Part shown: positions 1-27,624 of the stretch, piece by piece
How positions within the stretch are numbered: the stretch's first letter is position 1
How the letters are laid out: every line of letters starts with the position of its first letter
DNA from: a virus
Lineage: Duplodnaviria > Heunggongvirae > Uroviricota > Caudoviricetes
Length of the DNA stretch: 27,624 nucleotides
Strand: one strand, 5' to 3'
Virus record (IMG/VR): IMGVR_UViG_2565956708_000008
Notes under the pieces: model-generated
Databases searched by the model: none
The model's input: only the letters and a program-made list of their open reading frames with translations
What the model was told of the DNA's origin: nothing
Made by a program: the position numbers and the translations under genes

Positions 1-1
1 C

Positions 2-95
2 GTTGACGGACTTCGGGGGAAAAACGAGTATTTTTAGTCATCCTGTTTACCTCTTTCTCAGGAAGTTTAGTCTCCAGGATTCCCGGGGCGGTTCA
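2..95 (-). mobile_element. IS3-family insertion sequence, left end (terminal inverted repeat plus start of orfA reading leftwards out of the window)
   Basis: Positions 2..95 are the exact reverse complement of 27531..27624. The element end is TGAACCGCCCCGGG... and the minus-strand ATG at 41 opens MTKNTRFSPEVRQ, which I recall as an IS629/IS1203-type OrfA N-terminus. Confidence 0.7.
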
Positions 96-304
96 ATACG
101 TTGATCTTGTTTGTATATGACCCGGATTGCTACATAAATAATCCTTTGGGCGTGAAAACCGATCTGGAATCTAAAGACGCGGAAGGAAAAGTGAAGGTTG
201 TTATTGCGCAGTTCTGACACGCTTAAGTGTCACCTTACAGGATTAGGTTTGCGGCCGTGCCAGCAGGACGAGCATGAAAAAGGCCGCTGGCACGGCCGGA
301 TTTG

Positions 305-598
305 TCATCTTTGCCAGGTCAAATCAAAATCTACGTGAAAATCCGCAGGCTTAAGCTCGCAACTGCCACCACGCCCAATTAACGACGTTATGTTTACAAC
401 GTTTGAACCTGTTGAGATGGCAAGTTGAGTGTCATCTGTAAACGTGATGATTAGCATTTCAGTCTGATGAACCTGTACTCCAGTTTTCTGAAAACCAATC
501 TGGACAGATTTCACCGTTTTCCCAACCATTTCACGGGCTTGATTGATAGAGTAATTAGCTTCAACTTGTAGGTCATTCCTGAACTTGGGTAGTGTCAT
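305..598 (-). CDS. hypothetical protein, 97 aa, no recognisable motif
   Basis: ORF from the six-frame track; same strand as and downstream of the GIY-YIG gene; followed by a 12-bp perfect-stem hairpin at 253..297. Confidence 0.45.
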   Translation of the reverse strand: MTLPKFRNDLQVEANYSINQAREMVGKTVKSVQIGFQKTGVQVHQTEMLIITFTDDTQLAISTGSNVVNITSLIGRGGSCELKPADFHVDFDLTWQR

Positions 599-808
599 TT
601 TACATCCTCTTTAGTGAAGTTTTCGCTATTTAAATCAGCAGCATTCCTTTTAAATCACTGGCATGTCAGCAGTGGATAGTCTGAGTGTAACGTCCAGTGA
701 GGGGAATAAATATTGGTCAGACTTTGCACAAAAGAGCCAACTATCGCGGGCTCTCTCTCATCATGTGCGAAAATTGACCACAATATGAAATCCAGTTCCA
801 TTCCGAAA

Positions 809-1633
<825 letters not shown>

Positions 1634-1742
1634 TCAATTGACAACTTATAATCCCTACTAGTTAGCATTATGATTTCCAGAGTGAGGAATATAAAAATCT
1701 CTGTTTCTGGCACATAACAGCCCTTAAGATCGTAGCTCGCCA

Positions 1743-1789
1743 TCATGGGGTGTCGGGGGGCGGAGGTTCAAATCCTCTCGTGCCGACCA
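1743..1789 (+). other. 3' fragment of tRNA-Pro (T-arm, acceptor 3' strand, CCA); probable att core repeat, not a complete tRNA gene
   Basis: TCATGGGGTGTCGGGGGGCGGAGGTTCAAATCCTCTCGTGCCGACCA matches the 3' ~47 nt of enterobacterial tRNA-Pro(GGG) as I recall it, with one mismatch. The 30 nt upstream do not match the tRNA 5' half. Confidence 0.6.
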
Positions 1790-1803
1790 AAAATCCCTTA
1801 AGA

Positions 1804-1829
1804 ACCAGCCTATTATGGCTGGTTTTTTT
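1804..1829 (+). terminator. rho-independent terminator directly after the tRNA-Pro fragment
   Basis: Stem ACCAGCC / GGCTGGT with loop TATTAT, followed by a run of seven T. Confidence 0.65.
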
Positions 1830-1969
1830 ATGATTGTTTTTTATGCGGAGAAATACCGGGGAATAATTGGGGTAAAACACCTTTAGGCTATTCACTTAGC
1901 CTACCACCATCAAAATCTTTCCGAATGTATCCATCTCTTTTTTCTTATGCAGCTAAAACGAAGTCTTGA

Positions 1970-2017
1970 TACTGTTTATTTACACAGATAAGAATAATAC
2001 TGTCTACAAACGCAGTA
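1970..2017. promoter_or_regulatory. two tandem LexA (SOS) boxes upstream of the DinI-like gene
   Basis: Box 1 at 1970..1989 is TACTGTTTATTTACACAGAT (CTGT-N8-ACAG). Box 2 at 1998..2017 is TACTGTCTACAAACGCAGTA (CTGT-N8-GCAG, one mismatch). Confidence 0.55.
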
Positions 2018-2030
2018 CAAAAGAAGTGTT

Positions 2031-2209
2031 ATGCGTATTGAGATCTCCATAGCCAAAGACAAAATGACCAAATGCCAAACGGCGCTGTGGACGCGTTAAA
2101 GGAAGAATTAACCCAACACATTGGCAAGCGTTATGACGATGTGGAGATGATCGTAAAAGCCACCAGCAACGATAGTTTTTCAGTTAGACATACTGCAGAT
2201 AAAGATTGA
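2031..2209 (+). pseudogene. DinI-like protein, frameshifted
   Basis: Frame 1 gives [14 protein letters not shown] then a stop. The next frame continues (M)[44 protein letters not shown]. Together these align to DinI (MRIEVTIAKTSPLPAGAIDALAGEL...) as I remember it. The shift lies near 2066..2074. Confidence 0.5.
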
Positions 2210-2573
2210 GCTAAAACTTTCGTTCAGGAAACTCTGAATGATACCTGAGAGTCTACTGAAGAGTTGTTTGTTCACTAGTTAGCACGTAGGAAATCATTCA
2301 ATACTCGCACTATCGGAAGTTCACCAGCCAGTCGTAGCACGTCCTTGCAAACGACGTGCCTACGGTTTCAATCACCTCTCACCATCAATTCTATCAATAA
2401 TAATTAAACAGCGCCTAGACAAAATAAATAACAACAAGTCAACAACCTCGACAGGATGCCGATGGGATGATGAAGAGATAAGAAAGAATAACCAGTAAAG
2501 CCCTAAAACGTCAGCGTTCAGACGCGTTTTTTACTTAATCGGTAACAAATACGTTGTATCATAGCAAAATAAA

Positions 2574-4523
2574 ATGATTGTTCTAAATCAGATTAACTCC
2601 TCACTTTTGTACAATGTCGCTTACAGGTATACCATGAAATCCGAGACGCTAACTGTCCAACAACTTTTTCAAGACCGCCGACAATACTGTGTTCCATTCT
2701 ATCAACGTGCCTATGTATGGACTCAGCAAGACCAGTGGTCAGCTCTACTGGAGGATATCCTAGAGAAAGTACAATCCCGGCTCTCGGGTACAAAACCAAC
2801 TCCCCATTTCCTTGGTGCGGTTGTACTGGAACCTCAATCAAAAAAAGGATTATTAGGTGTAGATTCCATACATATTATTGATGGTCAGCAACGATTGACC
2901 ACTCTTCAATATGTTCTGGCATCCATCCGATTAGCATTACGTGCTACGGATCTTTCCAGCTTAGAGGCTCTCATTTCGCCTTGCCTGAAAAACTCAAACG
3001 AAGACACAATGCGAAATAAAGAAGTAGAACGCTTCAAACTGTGGCCAACTTTTCGGGATCAAACTCATTTTATTCAAAGTTTTAATGTTGAAAATATTGA
3101 CGATCTCCGGGACGTATTCTCTGATAGTTTCACGCAGCATGGTACGTTGCGTAAGCATTTTAATCACCCGCCATCACTAGAAGCATTATGTTTTTTTACT
3201 GAAGCCTTTATAAAATGGATTAAAATAGAAAACCACTCACCACAAGAAAATGCTGTAGCTCTAATTGAGGCTGTCTTAACAGATCTGAAACTGGTAAGCA
3301 TATTTCTCGAAGCTGAAGATGATGCCCAAATAATTTTTGAAACATTAAATGGGCGAGGGGCGGAACTTCATGCTACGGATCTTATTCGCAACTATATCTT
3401 TATGTGCGCTGAGCATGAAAATATTAATGCTATTGAATTATATGAAAATGAGTGGAAGAGCTTTGAAGATAAATACTGGTCGGAAAAACAACGCCGTGGA
3501 CGTATTAATAAACCACGCATGGAGTGGCTAGTACATGCGACATTGCAATCAGAAAGGCAACGTGAAATTGATCTGTCTCGCCTTTACAATGAGTATCGTG
3601 ATTATGTAAGTAAGGACTTGTCTTCACAACGAGCAGATCTGCAAGTAAAGCGCCTCAAACAATATGCATCACAATATAAAGAATTGGTTGATGGTTTTGG
3701 CACAACCCCCATCTCACACTTTGGATATCGCATCGCAGACTATGATGTGACGACACTTTATCCGCTTGCTTTGTTCATTTCGATAGCTAACATCGCTGAT
3801 GATGAGAAAGCAGCCATGTATAATGATCTTGTCTCCTACGTAGTACGAAGAGCCGTATGTGGCCTGACGCCAAAGAATTACAACAATGTATTTATGAATG
3901 TATTGCGGCACTTGGCTAAAACGGAAATTTCCAGTGTTGAGTTACGTAATATCCTCAATAACTTAAATGGCGAAGCCTCACGTTGGCCTGGTGACTCAGA
4001 ATTTCTCAACGCTTGCATCAATGCTCCACTTTATCCTGGCAGGCTCGACGCACCGAAAATGCGCTCAATGTTAACGGAACTTGAAAGAGAACTTTGTCGC
4101 CAAGTAAAGACAGAAAAGCCTGATGTTCCAAATCTTTCTAATCTCGATATCGATCATCTTATGCCTCAAAGTTGGTATTCCTGTTGGCCTCTCGAAAATG
4201 GTCGTATGGTGACAAATTCAGATGCTACGGTATTGAACCAAATTGTTCTGTCTGGAACCGATCTTACCCCTGAACAGCTACTGGTAAGGAAACGGCAACA
4301 AGCGATATCTACTTTGGGAAATCTAACTTTGCTTAACCTTAGCGTAAACCGTTCTGTTCAGAATGCTGTATTTCTGAAAAAACGTGATGCTCTCATCGTC
4401 CACACCAATCTACGACTGAACATTCCACTTATAGTTAAGGATAAATGGGATGAGGATGAAATCCTGGAGCGGGGTAAAAAGTTGGGGGAAATTGCATTGA
4501 AAGTATGGCCAAAACACGATTAA
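2574..4523 (+). CDS. GmrSD-like type IV restriction / defence protein (N-terminal DUF262 domain, C-terminal DUF1524 His-Me finger nuclease domain)
   Basis: N-terminal FYQRAYVWT and IIDGQQRLTTLQYVL (DGQQR signature of DUF262). C-terminal DIDHLMPQSW with downstream LGNLTLLNLSVNRSVQN. The start is more likely the internal ATG at 2634 (MKSETLTVQQLF...), which has an AGG 9 nt upstream. Confidence 0.8.
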   Translation: MIVLNQINSSLLYNVAYRYTMKSETLTVQQLFQDRRQYCVPFYQRAYVWTQQDQWSALLEDILEKVQSRLSGTKPTPHFLGAVVLEPQSKKGLLGVDSIHIIDGQQRLTTLQYVLASIRLALRATDLSSLEALISPCLKNSNEDTMRNKEVERFKLWPTFRDQTHFIQSFNVENIDDLRDVFSDSFTQHGTLRKHFNHPPSLEALCFFTEAFIKWIKIENHSPQENAVALIEAVLTDLKLVSIFLEAEDDAQIIFETLNGRGAELHATDLIRNYIFMCAEHENINAIELYENEWKSFEDKYWSEKQRRGRINKPRMEWLVHATLQSERQREIDLSRLYNEYRDYVSKDLSSQRADLQVKRLKQYASQYKELVDGFGTTPISHFGYRIADYDVTTLYPLALFISIANIADDEKAAMYNDLVSYVVRRAVCGLTPKNYNNVFMNVLRHLAKTEISSVELRNILNNLNGEASRWPGDSEFLNACINAPLYPGRLDAPKMRSMLTELERELCRQVKTEKPDVPNLSNLDIDHLMPQSWYSCWPLENGRMVTNSDATVLNQIVLSGTDLTPEQLLVRKRQQAISTLGNLTLLNLSVNRSVQNAVFLKKRDALIVHTNLRLNIPLIVKDKWDEDEILERGKKLGEIALKVWPKHD

Positions 4524-4547
4524 TGCAATTAATAAAATGATTATAGT

Positions 4548-4567
4548 GGCCTTACATTAGTAAGGCC
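4548..4567 (+). terminator. hairpin downstream of the GmrSD-like gene, possible terminator
   Basis: Stem GGCCTTAC / GTAAGGCC with loop ATTA; no clear T-run follows, so this is weak. Confidence 0.3.
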
Positions 4568-5644
4568 GCTACTCACTATTAAATACTTTAATTTGCATCA
4601 AGAACAGCAGTGTCAGCCCTAGGTCTCGGACTTTGTACCGCTTATCTTGTCTTCAAAAATCAGCTCGCATCCTGCACAGTTCAGCGCATTACGTTGTAGA
4701 TCTGTGTTCTGGTCATTTGTTGACACACGTACATAGCCAATAAGCATGGTAGATCTCCCTGACAAAAGCAGGAATGATGCCATTTGCTCGTTATTTCTGC
4801 ATTTTCATAAACGTTGGTTTGGGAGAAGGGGCAGCATGGCCTGTTGGTGAGGCTGAACAACAACCTCCAGACACGTCGCCCTCAAGCGGTCCTGGATGCA
4901 ACGGTAATGTTGTTATTGCTGAAGCTGACGCGGTACTGACACAGGTTGATACGGCAAATATATGCCCCGCATTACGTGTTAAGGGAATTCGTGGCAATGA
5001 TGATGCGCTCAGCGTTTCTAAAAAGTCTGATATGCCGTCAGCAAAAGAGCCATTTGTAGTTCCTATTTATGTGCTGGTAGCTATCATCCCGGTATCTTTG
5101 ACCGCTTAAGGTGGTGAATCTAGCGATACAGCAGGTTCTGGCTCGACCACTGTTAGCATTTCTGCCACTGTCGGTGGTAACAAGACCGTGGCGTGTACAG
5201 TGGCCGATACACTGATCGATACCTTTCCTTCAGACATCGCCTTTAACTCGATCGTGAGAGCAGGATAATGGATAACGCAGTATTAAATAGTGGCGTAAGT
5301 ACAAGTATTTCACTGCATAAAATGTTTTCTGAATATGATGGTGCAACAAGGGTTCATGTTGCCACTATAAGAGAATCTCGTGCCACTGGTGAGGGATTTC
5401 CGGCATTGCCTCCTCAGGGGAAACAAGTTGTACCTAAGGGTTCTGAACCTATATGATGGACTAATAATCCAACTCCTTCAAAATAGGTGGAAGAGCAGAG
5501 GGCTGAAATGAACTAAAAAACTTTAGCGTCAGAATCAAAAAACATCACCAAAACCCATGAGTACCCCGGCAATACAACCACTAGTCCCCTAATAAGCGAA
5601 TAACTTACGTAGGATGATTCGTGGCTGGAGTATCAGGCCGAAGT

Positions 5645-5916
5645 GCAGCAGAGCGACACTGTCTGTGCGGCAGAAGTACAGCGTCCGTCGCTTATTGATG
5701 CTCCGGTCAGATGCAATGCTCTGCTTTAGCGGAAATTGTTGGCGTGACCGCGGCAATGGCATGCAGAAAAGAGCTAACTCAACTCTTTTCTGCCTGCAAC
5801 TGATGCGGTCAGGGCAACAATTACAACTGAAGCGGAGGGAGGGATCTGACCGCAACTTCAAGCAGCGTATGACGCTCTATTTCTGCCGCACATGCTGTGT
5901 CGACATGCTCTGCTGC
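5645..5916. repeat. long imperfect palindrome of about 270 bp, two roughly 75 percent complementary arms around a perfect central hairpin
   Basis: GCAGCAGAGC at 5645..5654 is the reverse complement of 5907..5916, and the arms share blocks such as TGTGCGGCAGAA and GGTCAGAT. The central hairpin at 5763..5793 is GCAGAAAAGAG, loop CTAACTCAA, then CTCTTTTCTGC. Confidence 0.6.
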
Positions 5917-6287
5917 GTCCTGAGACACCAACTACGAATTATACTATGCAACGTCTTCGCTTTTTAGGCGAACAGTAGCTGTTTTTTCGGGCCACTGATC
6001 CGTTTTTGTGAATTTATTGAATTCTGAAACTACAGTGATTTTTACGATTTCACCCGTAAGCACCGCCACATCTTTCGAAGGAGGTAAGTTAACAGACCGT
6101 CAGGGACGTCAACCACCCTCAGCTCCAACTGCTGCCCCTAGTGGGTAAAAAGCCAGAAATCCATCACATGCTTCTATGTTTACATCAATAATGTCAACAG
6201 GAAGCCTTCTCGCACCATCATAGTCTTGAAACATTATTTGCAGAGCATATGTTTTAATACGTCGACAAATTAATACTGAGTTCACTA

Positions 6288-6485
6288 TTACCGTGCAATG
6301 ACGAAATATTTAACTGCAGTGTTTCGTGGAAGGGTTTCGATGAGGTGTTTGTCGACTTTACCCAACATGGAATGATTCTTACCGTCGGCAACAAAAATGC
6401 AACCCGCGGTCGCGTAAATCCCTGTTGAATTACTGAATATAGCACCATAGCCGCTCGTTGATCCCAAAAGGATAGCGCCCAGCAC
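6288..6485 (-). pseudogene. tail fibre distal segment, in frame with the upstream tail fibre gene but separated from it by an amber codon
   Basis: Same frame as 6486..7031 and continues immediately after TAG at 6486..6488; encodes GSTSGYGAIFSNSTGIYATAG, typical Gly/Ser/Thr-rich fibre sequence. Confidence 0.4.
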
Positions 6486-7031
6486 CTAAATAGTACCTAC
6501 AGAGGGCAATTTTGTTGAGAGCATATAAGACTTATAATCACCGCCGCTGGCATCAGCCCAACCAGTCATTCCATCCACCGGTAATTGACCCCATATATTT
6601 GCAGGAACAGTCTGAGCCATTTGCGCGTCAGGTTGACCAATCAAAACATCTCCGTTGCCTTTCGTCAACGTTGATAACGACGTGGCAGAGATTCGTGTTT
6701 CCGGCACGCCCACAGTTCGTTTTGCGGCTTCTCCCAAACCAAGGTTTTCGAGAGCCGTTTTCACCGTGCCGTCCGATTTGATATCGCTAAACGGATTCTT
6801 GCGGCTTAACAGCAGCGCACGAAGCGCGGTAAGCAGCTGGTCGTGCCGCGCCTTCTCCAGACTGGCACCGGATGCCTCCACCACGCTGCAGAGTTCTTCC
6901 TGCAACATGTCAAAGTAGTCATCATCCAGATCGGTGGCAGGCGTGCCTGTCTGGGGGTTACCACGGGTAAAACCGTTCTTACCCGCGCCGAACTTATCCT
7001 TCTGCGCGGTTTTCGTGTCTATACGATGCAT
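6486..7031 (-). CDS. tail fibre protein, N-terminal (constant) part; apparently truncated by an in-frame TAG
   Basis: Position directly after the baseplate genes; Mu S / e14 StfP-like N-terminus ([21 protein letters not shown]...) by recollection. Confidence 0.6.
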
Positions 7032-25007: not shown

Positions 25008-25259
25008 TCATTTTTTAGCCATCTCAATTGCGGCATCAAAAAGTCGTTCAAGAATAAAATCAGGGTACTGTAATTTTTCTTGCTCGATATGAAGCTCATA
25101 AATTTTCCCTTCCCACTCCCATTTAAAATTAAATCCAGAAGCAGAAGGTGCGAAATGTGTTTTAGCTTTAGGGTTAGCGTAACCAGCAACAGTCAACACA
25201 TCAAACTTAAAATCTTGAGGTTTAATACGCATAATCATATCCTTTGCCAAGTTCATCAT
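25008..25259 (-). CDS. hypothetical small moron protein (74 to 83 aa)
   Basis: AT-rich ORF convergent with the 24461..24901 gene; the likely start is the internal MRIKPQ with AAGGA upstream. Confidence 0.4.
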   Translation of the reverse strand: MMNLAKDMIMRIKPQDFKFDVLTVAGYANPKAKTHFAPSASGFNFKWEWEGKIYELHIEQEKLQYPDFILERLFDAAIEMAKK

Positions 25260-25329
25260 TATTCTTCGCGATTATAAAACAATGAATAAAATCATTAAAG
25301 CATAGACGTTAAATATCCTCAAAATGTGA

Positions 25330-25767
25330 TTAGTTGGGACATTGCGTCCTGATATACTCCTGCAAGTAATTGACCTGTGAGGTTATCTTGTCGATTCCAC
25401 TTCGGAGACGGTAATAATGGAGTTCAGCATCTGCTGTAAGTCTAGGGCTTTCTCCATCGCCCATGCCGCTGGCTCCGGTCGTTGACTTTGTACAGGTGGC
25501 GGCGACTTGCAGGCGCTTATGCCCAGCAGAAACATCAGCACGAAGACTTTCGATAGTCGCATTAGCATCAGCAAGCTCCTTTGTATATCTGGCATCGAGT
25601 TCAGCTACATTACGTTGACGCTTCTGCATATCAGCGATGATGGATGTGGCTTTATCGCGCTGTACTTTGTAGACGATGGCGTCATCACGGTAATTATCAA
25701 CAGCCCATGACAAGCAGACGATGATGCAGATAACCAGAGCGGATATAATCACCGTTACTCTGCTCAT
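25330..25767 (-). CDS. Rz: i-spanin Rz
   Basis: [23 protein letters not shown]... closely matches lambda Rz as I recall it; sits directly after the endolysin gene. Confidence 0.85.
25383..25568 (-). CDS. Rz1: o-spanin Rz1, embedded in the +1 frame of Rz
   Basis: Lipobox LLGISAC followed by a Pro-rich stretch ([12 protein letters not shown]), entirely inside Rz. The start is chosen at an internal Met; the track ORF runs to 25595. Confidence 0.65.
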
Positions 25768-26240
25768 ACCTGAATCTCTTTGACCGTTCCGCCGGCTTCT
25801 TTGAATTTTGCAATCAGGCTGTCAGCCTTATGCTCAAACTGACCATAACCAGCTCCCGGCAGTGAAGCCCAGATATTGCTGCAACGGTCGATAGCCTGAC
25901 GAATATCACCGCGATCAATCATCGGTAAAGCACCACGCTCTTTAATCTGCTGCAGTGCAACAGCATCCTGGCTTTTTGGAGAGAAGTCTTTCAGTCCAAG
26001 CTGTTTACGGTATGCATCCCACCAGCGGGAAAGAAGCTGGTAGCGCCCGGCAGCCGTTGATTTGAGTTTTGGGTTTAGCGTGACAAGTCTGCGAGGGTGA
26101 TCGGAGTAATCAGTGAATATTTCTCCGCCCACAATGACGTCATAACCATGATTACGTGTCGGTTGTAGCCCATTATCCGTTCCTTCTGACCAGGCCACCA
26201 TATCGAGGAAAGCTTTACGCTGAGGATTAAGATTTTGCAT
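25764..26240 (-). CDS. R: endolysin R, lambda-type lytic transglycosylase
   Basis: 158 aa; [18 protein letters not shown]...[10 protein letters not shown]... matches lambda R nearly residue for residue by recollection. Confidence 0.9.
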
Positions 26241-26631
26241 TTTTCACCCCTGTCAGTCGTTCCCAGAAGTACGTCAGTGCAACCGAACCCATCGCACCAC
26301 TAATCCCCGCAGTTGCGAGAATCATGTAAATACTGAATCCACTTTCGATACTGATTAGGCCACCAATAACACCGGTGAATCCTGATACAACTATCTGAGC
26401 GAGGGCATTTATCCAGCTCCACGTTGCTTTACTCTGCTTCACATCAATCAGGTAACGGACAAGCCCCCCCCAACCTGCGATGATCAGCAAAACAAGCCAG
26501 AACGCTCCGGCAAGATTCTCTTTTTCGTGCATATGAATAGCCGCAGTTTCGCCTCCGACAGAAAATCGGAGCGTGAAATGATATGTTGATTTATTATTAA
26601 TTCGAAAATTACATTCTAATTCATCAGGCAT
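26227..26631 (-). CDS. putative holin
   Basis: Overlaps the start of R; hydrophobic segments (AFWLVLLIIAGWGGLV, IVVSGFTGVIGGLI, ILATAGISGAMGSVAL). Not lambda S-like. The likely start is the internal Met MHEKEN. Confidence 0.6.
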   Translation of the reverse strand: MPDELECNFRINNKSTYHFTLRFSVGGETAAIHMHEKENLAGAFWLVLLIIAGWGGLVRYLIDVKQSKATWSWINALAQIVVSGFTGVIGGLISIESGFSIYMILATAGISGAMGSVALTYFWERLTGVKNAKS

Positions 26632-26683
26632 TGATGATTTTATAATAATAAAGGCCGTTCGTTACGGCCTTTATTATTGATAT

Positions 26684-27019
26684 TTATTTTACATCCCAAG
26701 GTAGTTCCTCAAGAGAGAAGACTAATTCATTATCAATAATTTCGTATTCTGCATAACCTTCAACCTCTCCTGAGAAGTTATTGTCAACGCATCCTTCATA
26801 ATAGCTATATGGTGCTATAAAGTGAAACCCATATTCATCTATCTCTGTGATTTCAAAATTGTAGTAATCGTAAGAATATCGAATATCATCATCAGAAATA
26901 GAACTAAGTACATAGTTATTAAATTTATCGGAATGCTTAACGATAAGTTCTGACAACGCGTCAAGATTCTCTGGAGAGATATTTCCTAACGGTAATCTGT
27001 ACTCAACGGCATTAATCAT
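26684..27019 (-). CDS. hypothetical acidic protein, 111 aa, moron between Q and the lysis genes
   Basis: AT-rich ORF with AAGGAGG before the ATG; very rich in D, E and Y; sits just downstream of the tR'-like terminator. Confidence 0.5.
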   Translation of the reverse strand: MINAVEYRLPLGNISPENLDALSELIVKHSDKFNNYVLSSISDDDIRYSYDYYNFEITEIDEYGFHFIAPYSYYEGCVDNNFSGEVEGYAEYEIIDNELVFSLEELPWDVK

Positions 27020-27073
27020 ACAACCTCCTTTTTAACTGATATGAGGTTATATAATGTGTTTCAGTACAAGTAA

Positions 27074-27096
27074 ATAAAAACCCGCTCAACAGCGGG
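27074..27096 (-). terminator. rho-independent terminator (tR'-like) on the minus strand
   Basis: Minus strand reads CCCGCT-GTTG-AGCGGG followed by TTTTT. Confidence 0.55.
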
Positions 27097-27144
27097 TTCG
27101 TGAAAATTATCAACGGCAGACATACAAAGCCCATCGTTGAGAAA

Positions 27145-27173
27145 ATCTTATCCATATTTTTTGAAAAATGCAA
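27145..27173 (-). promoter_or_regulatory. putative late promoter (pR'-like) downstream of the Q-like gene
   Basis: Minus strand TTGCAT, 17-nt spacer, TAAGAT, placed between the Q-like stop and the terminator. Confidence 0.3.
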
Positions 27174-27204
27174 GCTTCATGTCACTATCTTCGGCGAAAA
27201 TCAC

Positions 27205-27528
27205 TTATCTCGTCACCTTTCTCAATTGTGTTTCAGCATATGCTTCTTCCTGCCAGCACTTTGTTACTAGTTTATCAATTACGTCTGCATATCCTTTGTA
27301 CCACTGATAATCAGTCAGGTCTGGAACCAGCTTCTGGACATGACGTCGTGCCAGTGTAGTCGGTAAACGGCTAAACCGGTTTCCATTGCAACGCCCACAA
27401 GTCTTATAAACAGGCGTGCCATGAAGCCGGGTTCTTTTTTCATCCAGGACAATACCTTTACCCTTACACCCTCTGCACGCCGTGCTGACTTCTCCCTTGC
27501 CATGACAATGCTGACACAGTTCCTTCAC
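27205..27528 (-). pseudogene. Q-like late antiterminator candidate (zinc-ribbon protein), 5'-truncated by the IS insertion
   Basis: CxxCxGxG repeats (CQHCHGKG, CRGCKGKG) and CGRC; the frame stays open to the IS boundary at 27530 with no ATG (the first codon is GTG); sits upstream of the promoter, terminator and lysis genes. Confidence 0.35.
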
Positions 27529-27530
27529 CC

Positions 27531-27624
27531 TGAACCGCCCCGGGAATCCTGGAGACTAAACTTCCTGAGAAAGAGGTAAACAGGATGACTAAAAATACTC
27601 GTTTTTCCCCCGAAGTCCGTCAAC
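27531..27624 (+). mobile_element. IS3-family insertion sequence, left end (terminal inverted repeat plus start of orfA reading rightwards out of the window)
   Basis: TGAACCGCCCCGGGAATCCTGGAG... then ATG at 27585 opening MTKNTRFSPEVRQ; exact reverse complement of 2..95. Confidence 0.7.

Follow-up and report, generated by a model that had tools for sequence, protein, structure and literature searches.

The stretch of DNA analysed here (27,624 nucleotides in full, hereafter the window) is, with high probability, a piece of an E. coli prophage integrated at ssrA and lying between two identical IS629-type copies that arrived by separate events. On the left, a plain insertion with an ATA duplication would have split a 262-aa accessory nuclease gene after codon 223, leaving the last 39 residues of the nuclease stranded at positions 98-217 and its 5' part fused to 53 IS-encoded residues. 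On the right, the second copy would sit in the antiterminator gene Q, with its far side joined to DNA that IS-free relatives have 13,884 bp further on; because of this junction the lineage would now be without the integrase, the early-region genes for immunity, replication and recombination, and the N-terminus of Q. What was left may be described as a locked-in remnant of late genes together with a small defence-gene cluster. The features on which this account draws are collected in Table 1.

Table 1. Features at the two ends of the window and beside the invertible tail-fibre segment (window coordinates).
Feature	Position	Strand	Source or remark
Left IS629-type copy, terminal 95 nt	1..95	-	Mirrors 27531-27624; full IS in SCU-116
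Parts of the left copy	25-bp imperfect IRL 95..71 (terminus at 95); 54-nt leader; orfA ATG 41..39	-	orfA runs leftward off the window
ATA, inner target-site duplication copy of the left IS	96..98		SCU-116 versus UTI89 junctions
3' remnant of the 262-aa nuclease gene	96..217	+	Intact homologue in UTI89
GC-rich hairpin, ~13-bp stem	252..298		Lies where the nuclease gene and the 97-aa gene converge
97-aa hypothetical gene, WP_000174562.1, intact	305..598	-	Annotated in SCU-116 and UTI89
LEM-3-like GIY-YIG nuclease gene, PD-T4-3 defence model, intact	809..1615	-	PADLOC, Pfam
GmrSD-like (DUF262/DUF1524) type IV methyl-directed restriction enzyme gene, intact	2574..4523	+	Pfam, PADLOC
Recombinase gene, 41-codon stump	4625-4747	-	Adjoins the invertible segment
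Antiterminator Q, C-terminal 107 codons	27205..27530	-	Pfam Antiterm, E=3.4e-32
Right IS629-type copy, first 94 nt	27531..27624	+	IRL 27531-27555 (terminus starts at 27531); orfA ATG 27585, rightward off the window

The window itself holds only 94-95 nt of each IS copy and none of the outer flanks, and the target-site duplications and the deletion were read in finished genomes. Megablast of window positions 1-2500 and 25100-27624 against 5,426 complete E. coli genomes placed both ends, IS parts included, at 100% identity in SCU-116 (NZ_CP051719), MS20673 (NZ_CP082067) and Eco_23-2678 (NZ_CM176498), with the two ends exactly 27,624 bp apart in each. Position 1 also belongs to the IS, and the match of 1-2500 to SCU-116 runs at 100% across the IS junction. 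All four junctions co-occur at 100% identity solely in these three genomes, and none of the 5,426 carries an IS at one junction only or displays one of the two events only. The window was not cut from any of these three records; its segment at about 4829-6727 matches no complete genome. Because the three genomes share the inner junctions of the window to the base, their duplications and deletion can probably be carried over to the genome from which the window came. UTI89 served as the IS-free reference for junctions, gene content and orientation. More than 100 genomes (UTI89, S88, APEC O1, IHE3034 and others) match the window in IS-free form from position 96 onward, and IS-free genomes match its right end exactly as far as 27530. 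FDAARGOS_1302 and MS8345 reached 97% coverage at the left end but do not have the left junction: in both the nuclease gene is uninterrupted, and another IS copy nearby supplies the IS end that they match. Coordinates given below under L001 and L003 are those of SCU-116, L002 and L004 those of UTI89, L005 those of MS8345 and L006 those of FDAARGOS_1302.

A repeat search over the whole window found a single inverted pair, with arms at 2-95 and 27531-27624 (94 nt, 100% complementary, 27,435 nt between them), and a perfect match of 94 nt in 27.6 kb cannot have arisen by chance. The first-pass annotation had described the two ends as exact mirror images with their transposase-proximal ends pointing inward, and the repeat search and direct reading of the letters agree with it; its assignment of them to inverted IS3-family ends around a prophage interior is borne out by the full copies in the finished genomes. 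Each arm belongs to a 1310-bp IS3-family element and comprises its IRL end, its leader and 13 codons from the start of orfA; the right arm begins with the IS terminus TGAACCGCCCCGGG, which the left arm mirrors on the minus strand. The IRL (transposase-start) ends of both copies face the interior, and both elements run outward off the window. The limits of the window most probably reflect a break of the source assembly at the repeated IS. Inverted IS ends that bound a window, when met in a scan, usually signify an assembly break and not a transposon.

The full copies in SCU-116 (L001 4786..6095, minus strand; L003 5720..7029, plus strand) are each 1310 bp long, within the ~1.2-1.55 kb of the IS3 family, and are identical to each other across all 1310 bp. 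Their termini are TG...CA, and the IRL (TGAACCGCCCCGGGAATCCTGGAGA) and IRR (TGAACCGCCCCGGGTTTCCTGGAGA) form an imperfect inverted repeat matching at 22 of 25 positions. Domain searches found HTH_Tnp_1 in orfA and HTH_21, rve (the DDE core) and rve_3 in orfB; the two frames overlap, the ALIL -1 frameshift pseudoknot RF01497 is present (120 bits), and RefSeq records a 'programmed frameshift'. Stx-phage features with the annotation 'IS3 family IS629' match the element at 99.5% over 1310 bp, and a copy from a phage 21 int record matches it at 100%. The left copy carries a duplication of the 3-4 bp expected of the IS3 family, and the right copy lacks one owing to the adjacent deletion. Judged by these sequence features, the element is an IS629 isoform of the IS3 family and should move by the copy-out-paste-in route. 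It resembles the IS629 of E. coli and Shigella in length, termini, -1 frameshift with ALIL pseudoknot, DDE (rve) domain and 3-bp duplication, with no substantive difference; here it occurs in UTI89-related strains, whereas IS629 has been best studied in O157:H7. PMC3271280 names IS1203 and IS3411 as isoforms of IS629 and reports that IS629 generates 3-4 bp duplications, of which a matching pair was kept in only 21 of 47 O157 copies.

At the left junction, SCU-116 reads ...GACTGCGATA[IS]ATACGTTGATC... where UTI89 has the uninterrupted GACTGCGATACGTTGATC, and the blast blocks of the two genomes around the IS overlap by exactly 3 bp (L002 6001-6003). By this comparison the left copy is a simple insertion after codon 223 of the 262-aa gene, with a matched 3-bp duplication, ATA/ATA, and the junction expected in the source strain is ...GACTGCGATA[IS]ATACGTTG.... 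The intact gene in UTI89 (L002 5334..6122, WP_000183405.1) has its last base at window position 217; positions 96-97 are the last two nucleotides of codon 223, 98-214 are codons 224-262 and 215-217 are the stop codon TGA. The open frame 98-217, which translates as TLILFVYDPDCYINNPLGVKTDLESKDAEGKVKVVIAQF followed by the stop, had been suspected in the first-pass annotation to be the 3' remnant of a disrupted gene, to be checked by comparing its peptide with an IS-free homologue. That comparison confirmed the suspicion, since the uninterrupted 262-aa WP_000183405.1 continues the frame in UTI89 and in many other genomes.

The 262-aa protein matches PF18742 (REase_DpnII-MboI, PD-(D/E)XK) over residues 117-261 with E=9.5e-49 and a score of 165 bits against a cut-off of 27, which places it in this nuclease family by profile. 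PADLOC matches it to the nuclease part of the Aga_Helical-REase models, and the EcbAgaN chain in the PDB gives a weak match (E=2e-4). Its N-terminal 116 residues match no profile, and NCBIfam has no model for the gene. The likeness to the AgaN, Aga_Helical-REase and REase_DpnII-MboI family thus lies in its C-terminal 145 residues; in contrast to AgaN and Aga_Helical-REase, the protein is only 262 aa long and is encoded by a stand-alone gene next to other defence genes; its nuclease activity is a prediction. No Argonaute gene is annotated in the region of UTI89 examined. A candidate D...EVK motif (RQDFLL...IVIEVKK) precedes the IS cut, and the 39 residues lost to the IS start with the hydrophobic strand LILFVYD. 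SCU-116 annotates the 5' part as a 276-aa fusion of 223 native and 53 IS-encoded residues (WP_021532124.1), and nuclease function would presumably have been lost through the cut. SCU-116 also has a third IS outside the window, at L001 2743-4073, which is flanked by a 5-bp duplication, CGCAC, and whose ends, TAGACTGGCCCCC...GGGGCAAATCCA, are IS2-like; it is placed between ssrA and the cut nuclease gene, 43 bp upstream of the start of that gene.

The nuclease remnant and the 97-aa gene converge on the GC-rich hairpin. The fold of 215-320 has a free energy of -46.3 kcal/mol (z=-4.4), which none of 200 shuffles equalled, and terminator-like sites occur on both strands at 252-298, so that the hairpin is likely to be a bidirectional terminator. 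For the 97-aa gene, Pfam, PADLOC and NCBIfam returned no match. The next two genes are recognizable defence genes: the product of 809-1615 is matched by the PADLOC model PDLC04031 for PD-T4-3 (E=8.6e-137) and by Pfam PF22945, and that of 2574-4523 by Pfam GmrSD_N and GmrSD_C and by the PADLOC mREase_IV model (1415 bits). The PD-T4-3 and GmrSD-like genes adjoin the cut nuclease gene, and the cluster of defence genes that they form with it is situated between attL and the tail-fibre genes. The target of the IS was therefore a small group of defence genes at the prophage's tail-fibre end.

At the right end, the remnant of Q lacks the N-terminal 142 codons and is labelled in SCU-116 'antitermination protein, incomplete, missing N-terminus'. 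The intact 250-aa gene in UTI89 occupies L004 2399..3151, and identity ends at L004 2724. In SCU-116 the flank inside the right copy is ...CTTCACCC (CCC) and that outside it is CGTAAGGTTCG... (CGT), with no duplication; these flanks map to UTI89 L004 2724 and 16609, and the copy replaces L004 2725..16608, that is 13,884 bp, as in an IS-associated deletion. The right copy is without a duplication because it abuts this 13.9-kb deletion, and neither this nor the truncation of Q had been part of the first-pass annotation. The Q side of the junction reads GGGTGAAGGAA..., and the junction expected in the source strain is CTTCACCC[IS]CGTAAGGTTCG. The missing DNA contained the first 142 codons of Q, the early region in full (with genes for DUF968, KilA-N, RusA, a methyltransferase, YfdN, a replication-type HTH protein, the immunity genes YmfL/T/K, and YfdP/Q/R), the integrase, a STAS-like gene and the C-terminal part of WP_000154254.1. 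A 197-bp direct repeat, 89.8% identical (L001 2159-2353 and L003 7546-7735), which contains the 3' end of ssrA, flanks the island on either side; these att-type repeats have been retained at both borders in the deleted lineage though the integrase was lost.

For the inverted pair as a whole, the first-pass annotation had proposed either an IS-mediated inversion or a composite transposon, and had pointed to the duplications at the IS ends as the means of deciding. Those of the left copy are matched (ATA/ATA) and not swapped, and those of the right copy (CCC against CGT) are unmatched. Outside the tail-fibre segment, the window interior (96-4833 and 6728-27530) follows UTI89 collinearly at 99.98% identity; SCU-116 and UTI89 share the gene order ssrA, nuclease gene, tail, head, lysis, Q, glaH, and in all three finished genomes the interior lies between ssrA and glaH in the UTI89 orientation. 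Recombination between the inverted copies could in principle have flipped the 27.4-kb segment, as the copies are perfect 1310-bp inverted repeats and a good substrate for RecA, and the right copy does lack a matching duplication. However, an inversion would have separated the ATA pair that the left copy still holds, the 13,884-bp deletion suffices to explain why the flanks of the right copy do not match, and the ancestral orientation together with the matched ATA flanks rules out an inversion as the fixed arrangement; we regard this history as very improbable. The transposition of both copies and the intervening 27.4 kb as one unit into this site is exceedingly unlikely. Two identical inverted copies around a DNA segment do recall Tn5 and Tn10, but the likeness in layout is coincidental: the outer flanks, ATA on the left and CGT on the right, supply no duplication of the unit, both outward-facing ends are IRR, and the interior and its flanks are contiguous at ssrA in the IS-free UTI89 apart from the deleted 13.9 kb, so that no empty target is found. 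The unit also occurs at one genomic site only, in three of the 5,426 complete genomes searched, and the missing unit duplication and ancestral locus rule out a composite transposon as its origin.

It could further be asked whether the inverted arrangement is real at all, given that the window starts and stops 94-95 nt inside an IS, as is typical of the edges of short-read contigs that collapse a repeat, and that the segment at about 4829-6727 is demonstrably a consensus artefact. Three independently finished chromosomes nonetheless show both junctions 27,624 bp apart with full inverted IS copies, which rules out an assembly artefact at the junctions and leaves that explanation scarcely credible. 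There was thus no inversion and no composite transposition, as follows from the matched left duplication and from the ancestral locus and orientation of the unit. What the pair of copies records is one insertion and one deletion, independent of each other, in a prophage undergoing decay. A more elaborate reading would have the left insertion favoured by selection, since it silenced a costly or self-toxic nuclease and spared the PD-T4-3 and GmrSD-like neighbours, and would make the 27.4-kb remnant a segment that now inverts in the population in a RecA-dependent manner; taken jointly, these proposals seem to us improbable.

Two separate IS events remain the reading that we prefer, and two routes may have led to the loss at the right copy: a deletion adjacent to the IS, or recombination between two direct IS copies. 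In the latter case, copies in Q and in the WP_000154254.1 gene would have recombined, deleting the DNA between them and one copy, to the exclusion of a transposase-driven adjacent deletion. We hold this variant to be possible and would advance it tentatively. CCC and CGT may come from two different duplications, as the left half of the one and the right half of the other, and MS8345 has an independent IS ~100 bp off in the same outer gene, which indicates that this gene is repeatedly targeted. The MS8345 copy was considered as an intermediate and rejected, as it is ~100 bp away and independent. Against the variant, an IS flanked by an intact duplication occurs at neither exact site in any of the 5,426 complete genomes, and the data are equally compatible with an IS-adjacent deletion.

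The tail-fibre region of the window has to be read separately. Its segment at about 4829-6727 has no close match in any complete E. coli genome, and the flanks of this segment are nearly identical to UTI89. In a three-way alignment of the window segment with its UTI89 counterpart in both orientations (forward and reverse complement), 582 of the 1,954 window bases agreed with both orientations, 649 with the forward orientation only, 723 with the reverse only and 0 with neither. Of the 1,359 columns informative for the choice of orientation, 636 followed the forward orientation, 723 the reverse and 0 neither. The rate of switching from base to base was 0.495, where independent choice would give 0.498. 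The possibility that the tail-fibre segment is simply inverted was rejected, as the sequence matches neither UTI89 orientation and is a per-base mixture of both. Crossover-type inverted sites of 20 bp, AAACGTTGGTTTGGGAGAAG (4810-4829) and CTTCTCCCAAACCAAGGTTT (6727-6746), bound the segment; together with the recombinase stump they form the layout of a Gin/Pin/Cin-type invertible tail-fibre segment. As the recombinase is reduced to a stump of 41 codons, the invertase presumably acts in trans and is encoded elsewhere. From the alignment, the mosaic is best explained as a consensus artefact, or as one that arose when ambiguity codes were resolved, in sequence from a culture with both orientations in roughly equal amounts. 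The ORFs in this segment are meaningless and its sequence is unusable.

The same IS629-type element has entered the same prophage independently, at other positions, in FDAARGOS_1302 and MS8345. A parallel copy without a duplication replaces UTI89 2903611-2933496 (29.9 kb), a loss that begins downstream of the DinI-like pseudogene and the GmrSD gene, takes in the late genes and ends within the early region. A second parallel copy has a 3-bp duplication at 2936297-2936299, the two copies again forming an inverted pair, and MS8345 has a further copy at 2942707-2942709. PMC3271280 and PMC9943667 describe prophages as a frequent target of IS629 in O157, and the inactivations and deletions that they report in E. 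coli O157 prophages likewise combine insertion into a prophage gene with a duplication-less IS beside a multi-kb deletion, although the lineage and the prophage differ from ours.

Insertion and deletion by an IS629-type element are ordinary, already known and annotated forms of prophage wear. The present case has little consequence beyond bookkeeping, in that it shows such an element disabling and trimming a prophage in UTI89-related strains. The outcome is that an accessory nuclease was knocked out, that the integrase, the immunity genes and Q were removed, and that the late genes and two intact defence genes became fixed in the chromosome. With the complementary half of the same prophage trimmed independently elsewhere, it makes a tidy example of recurrent IS-driven prophage decay.
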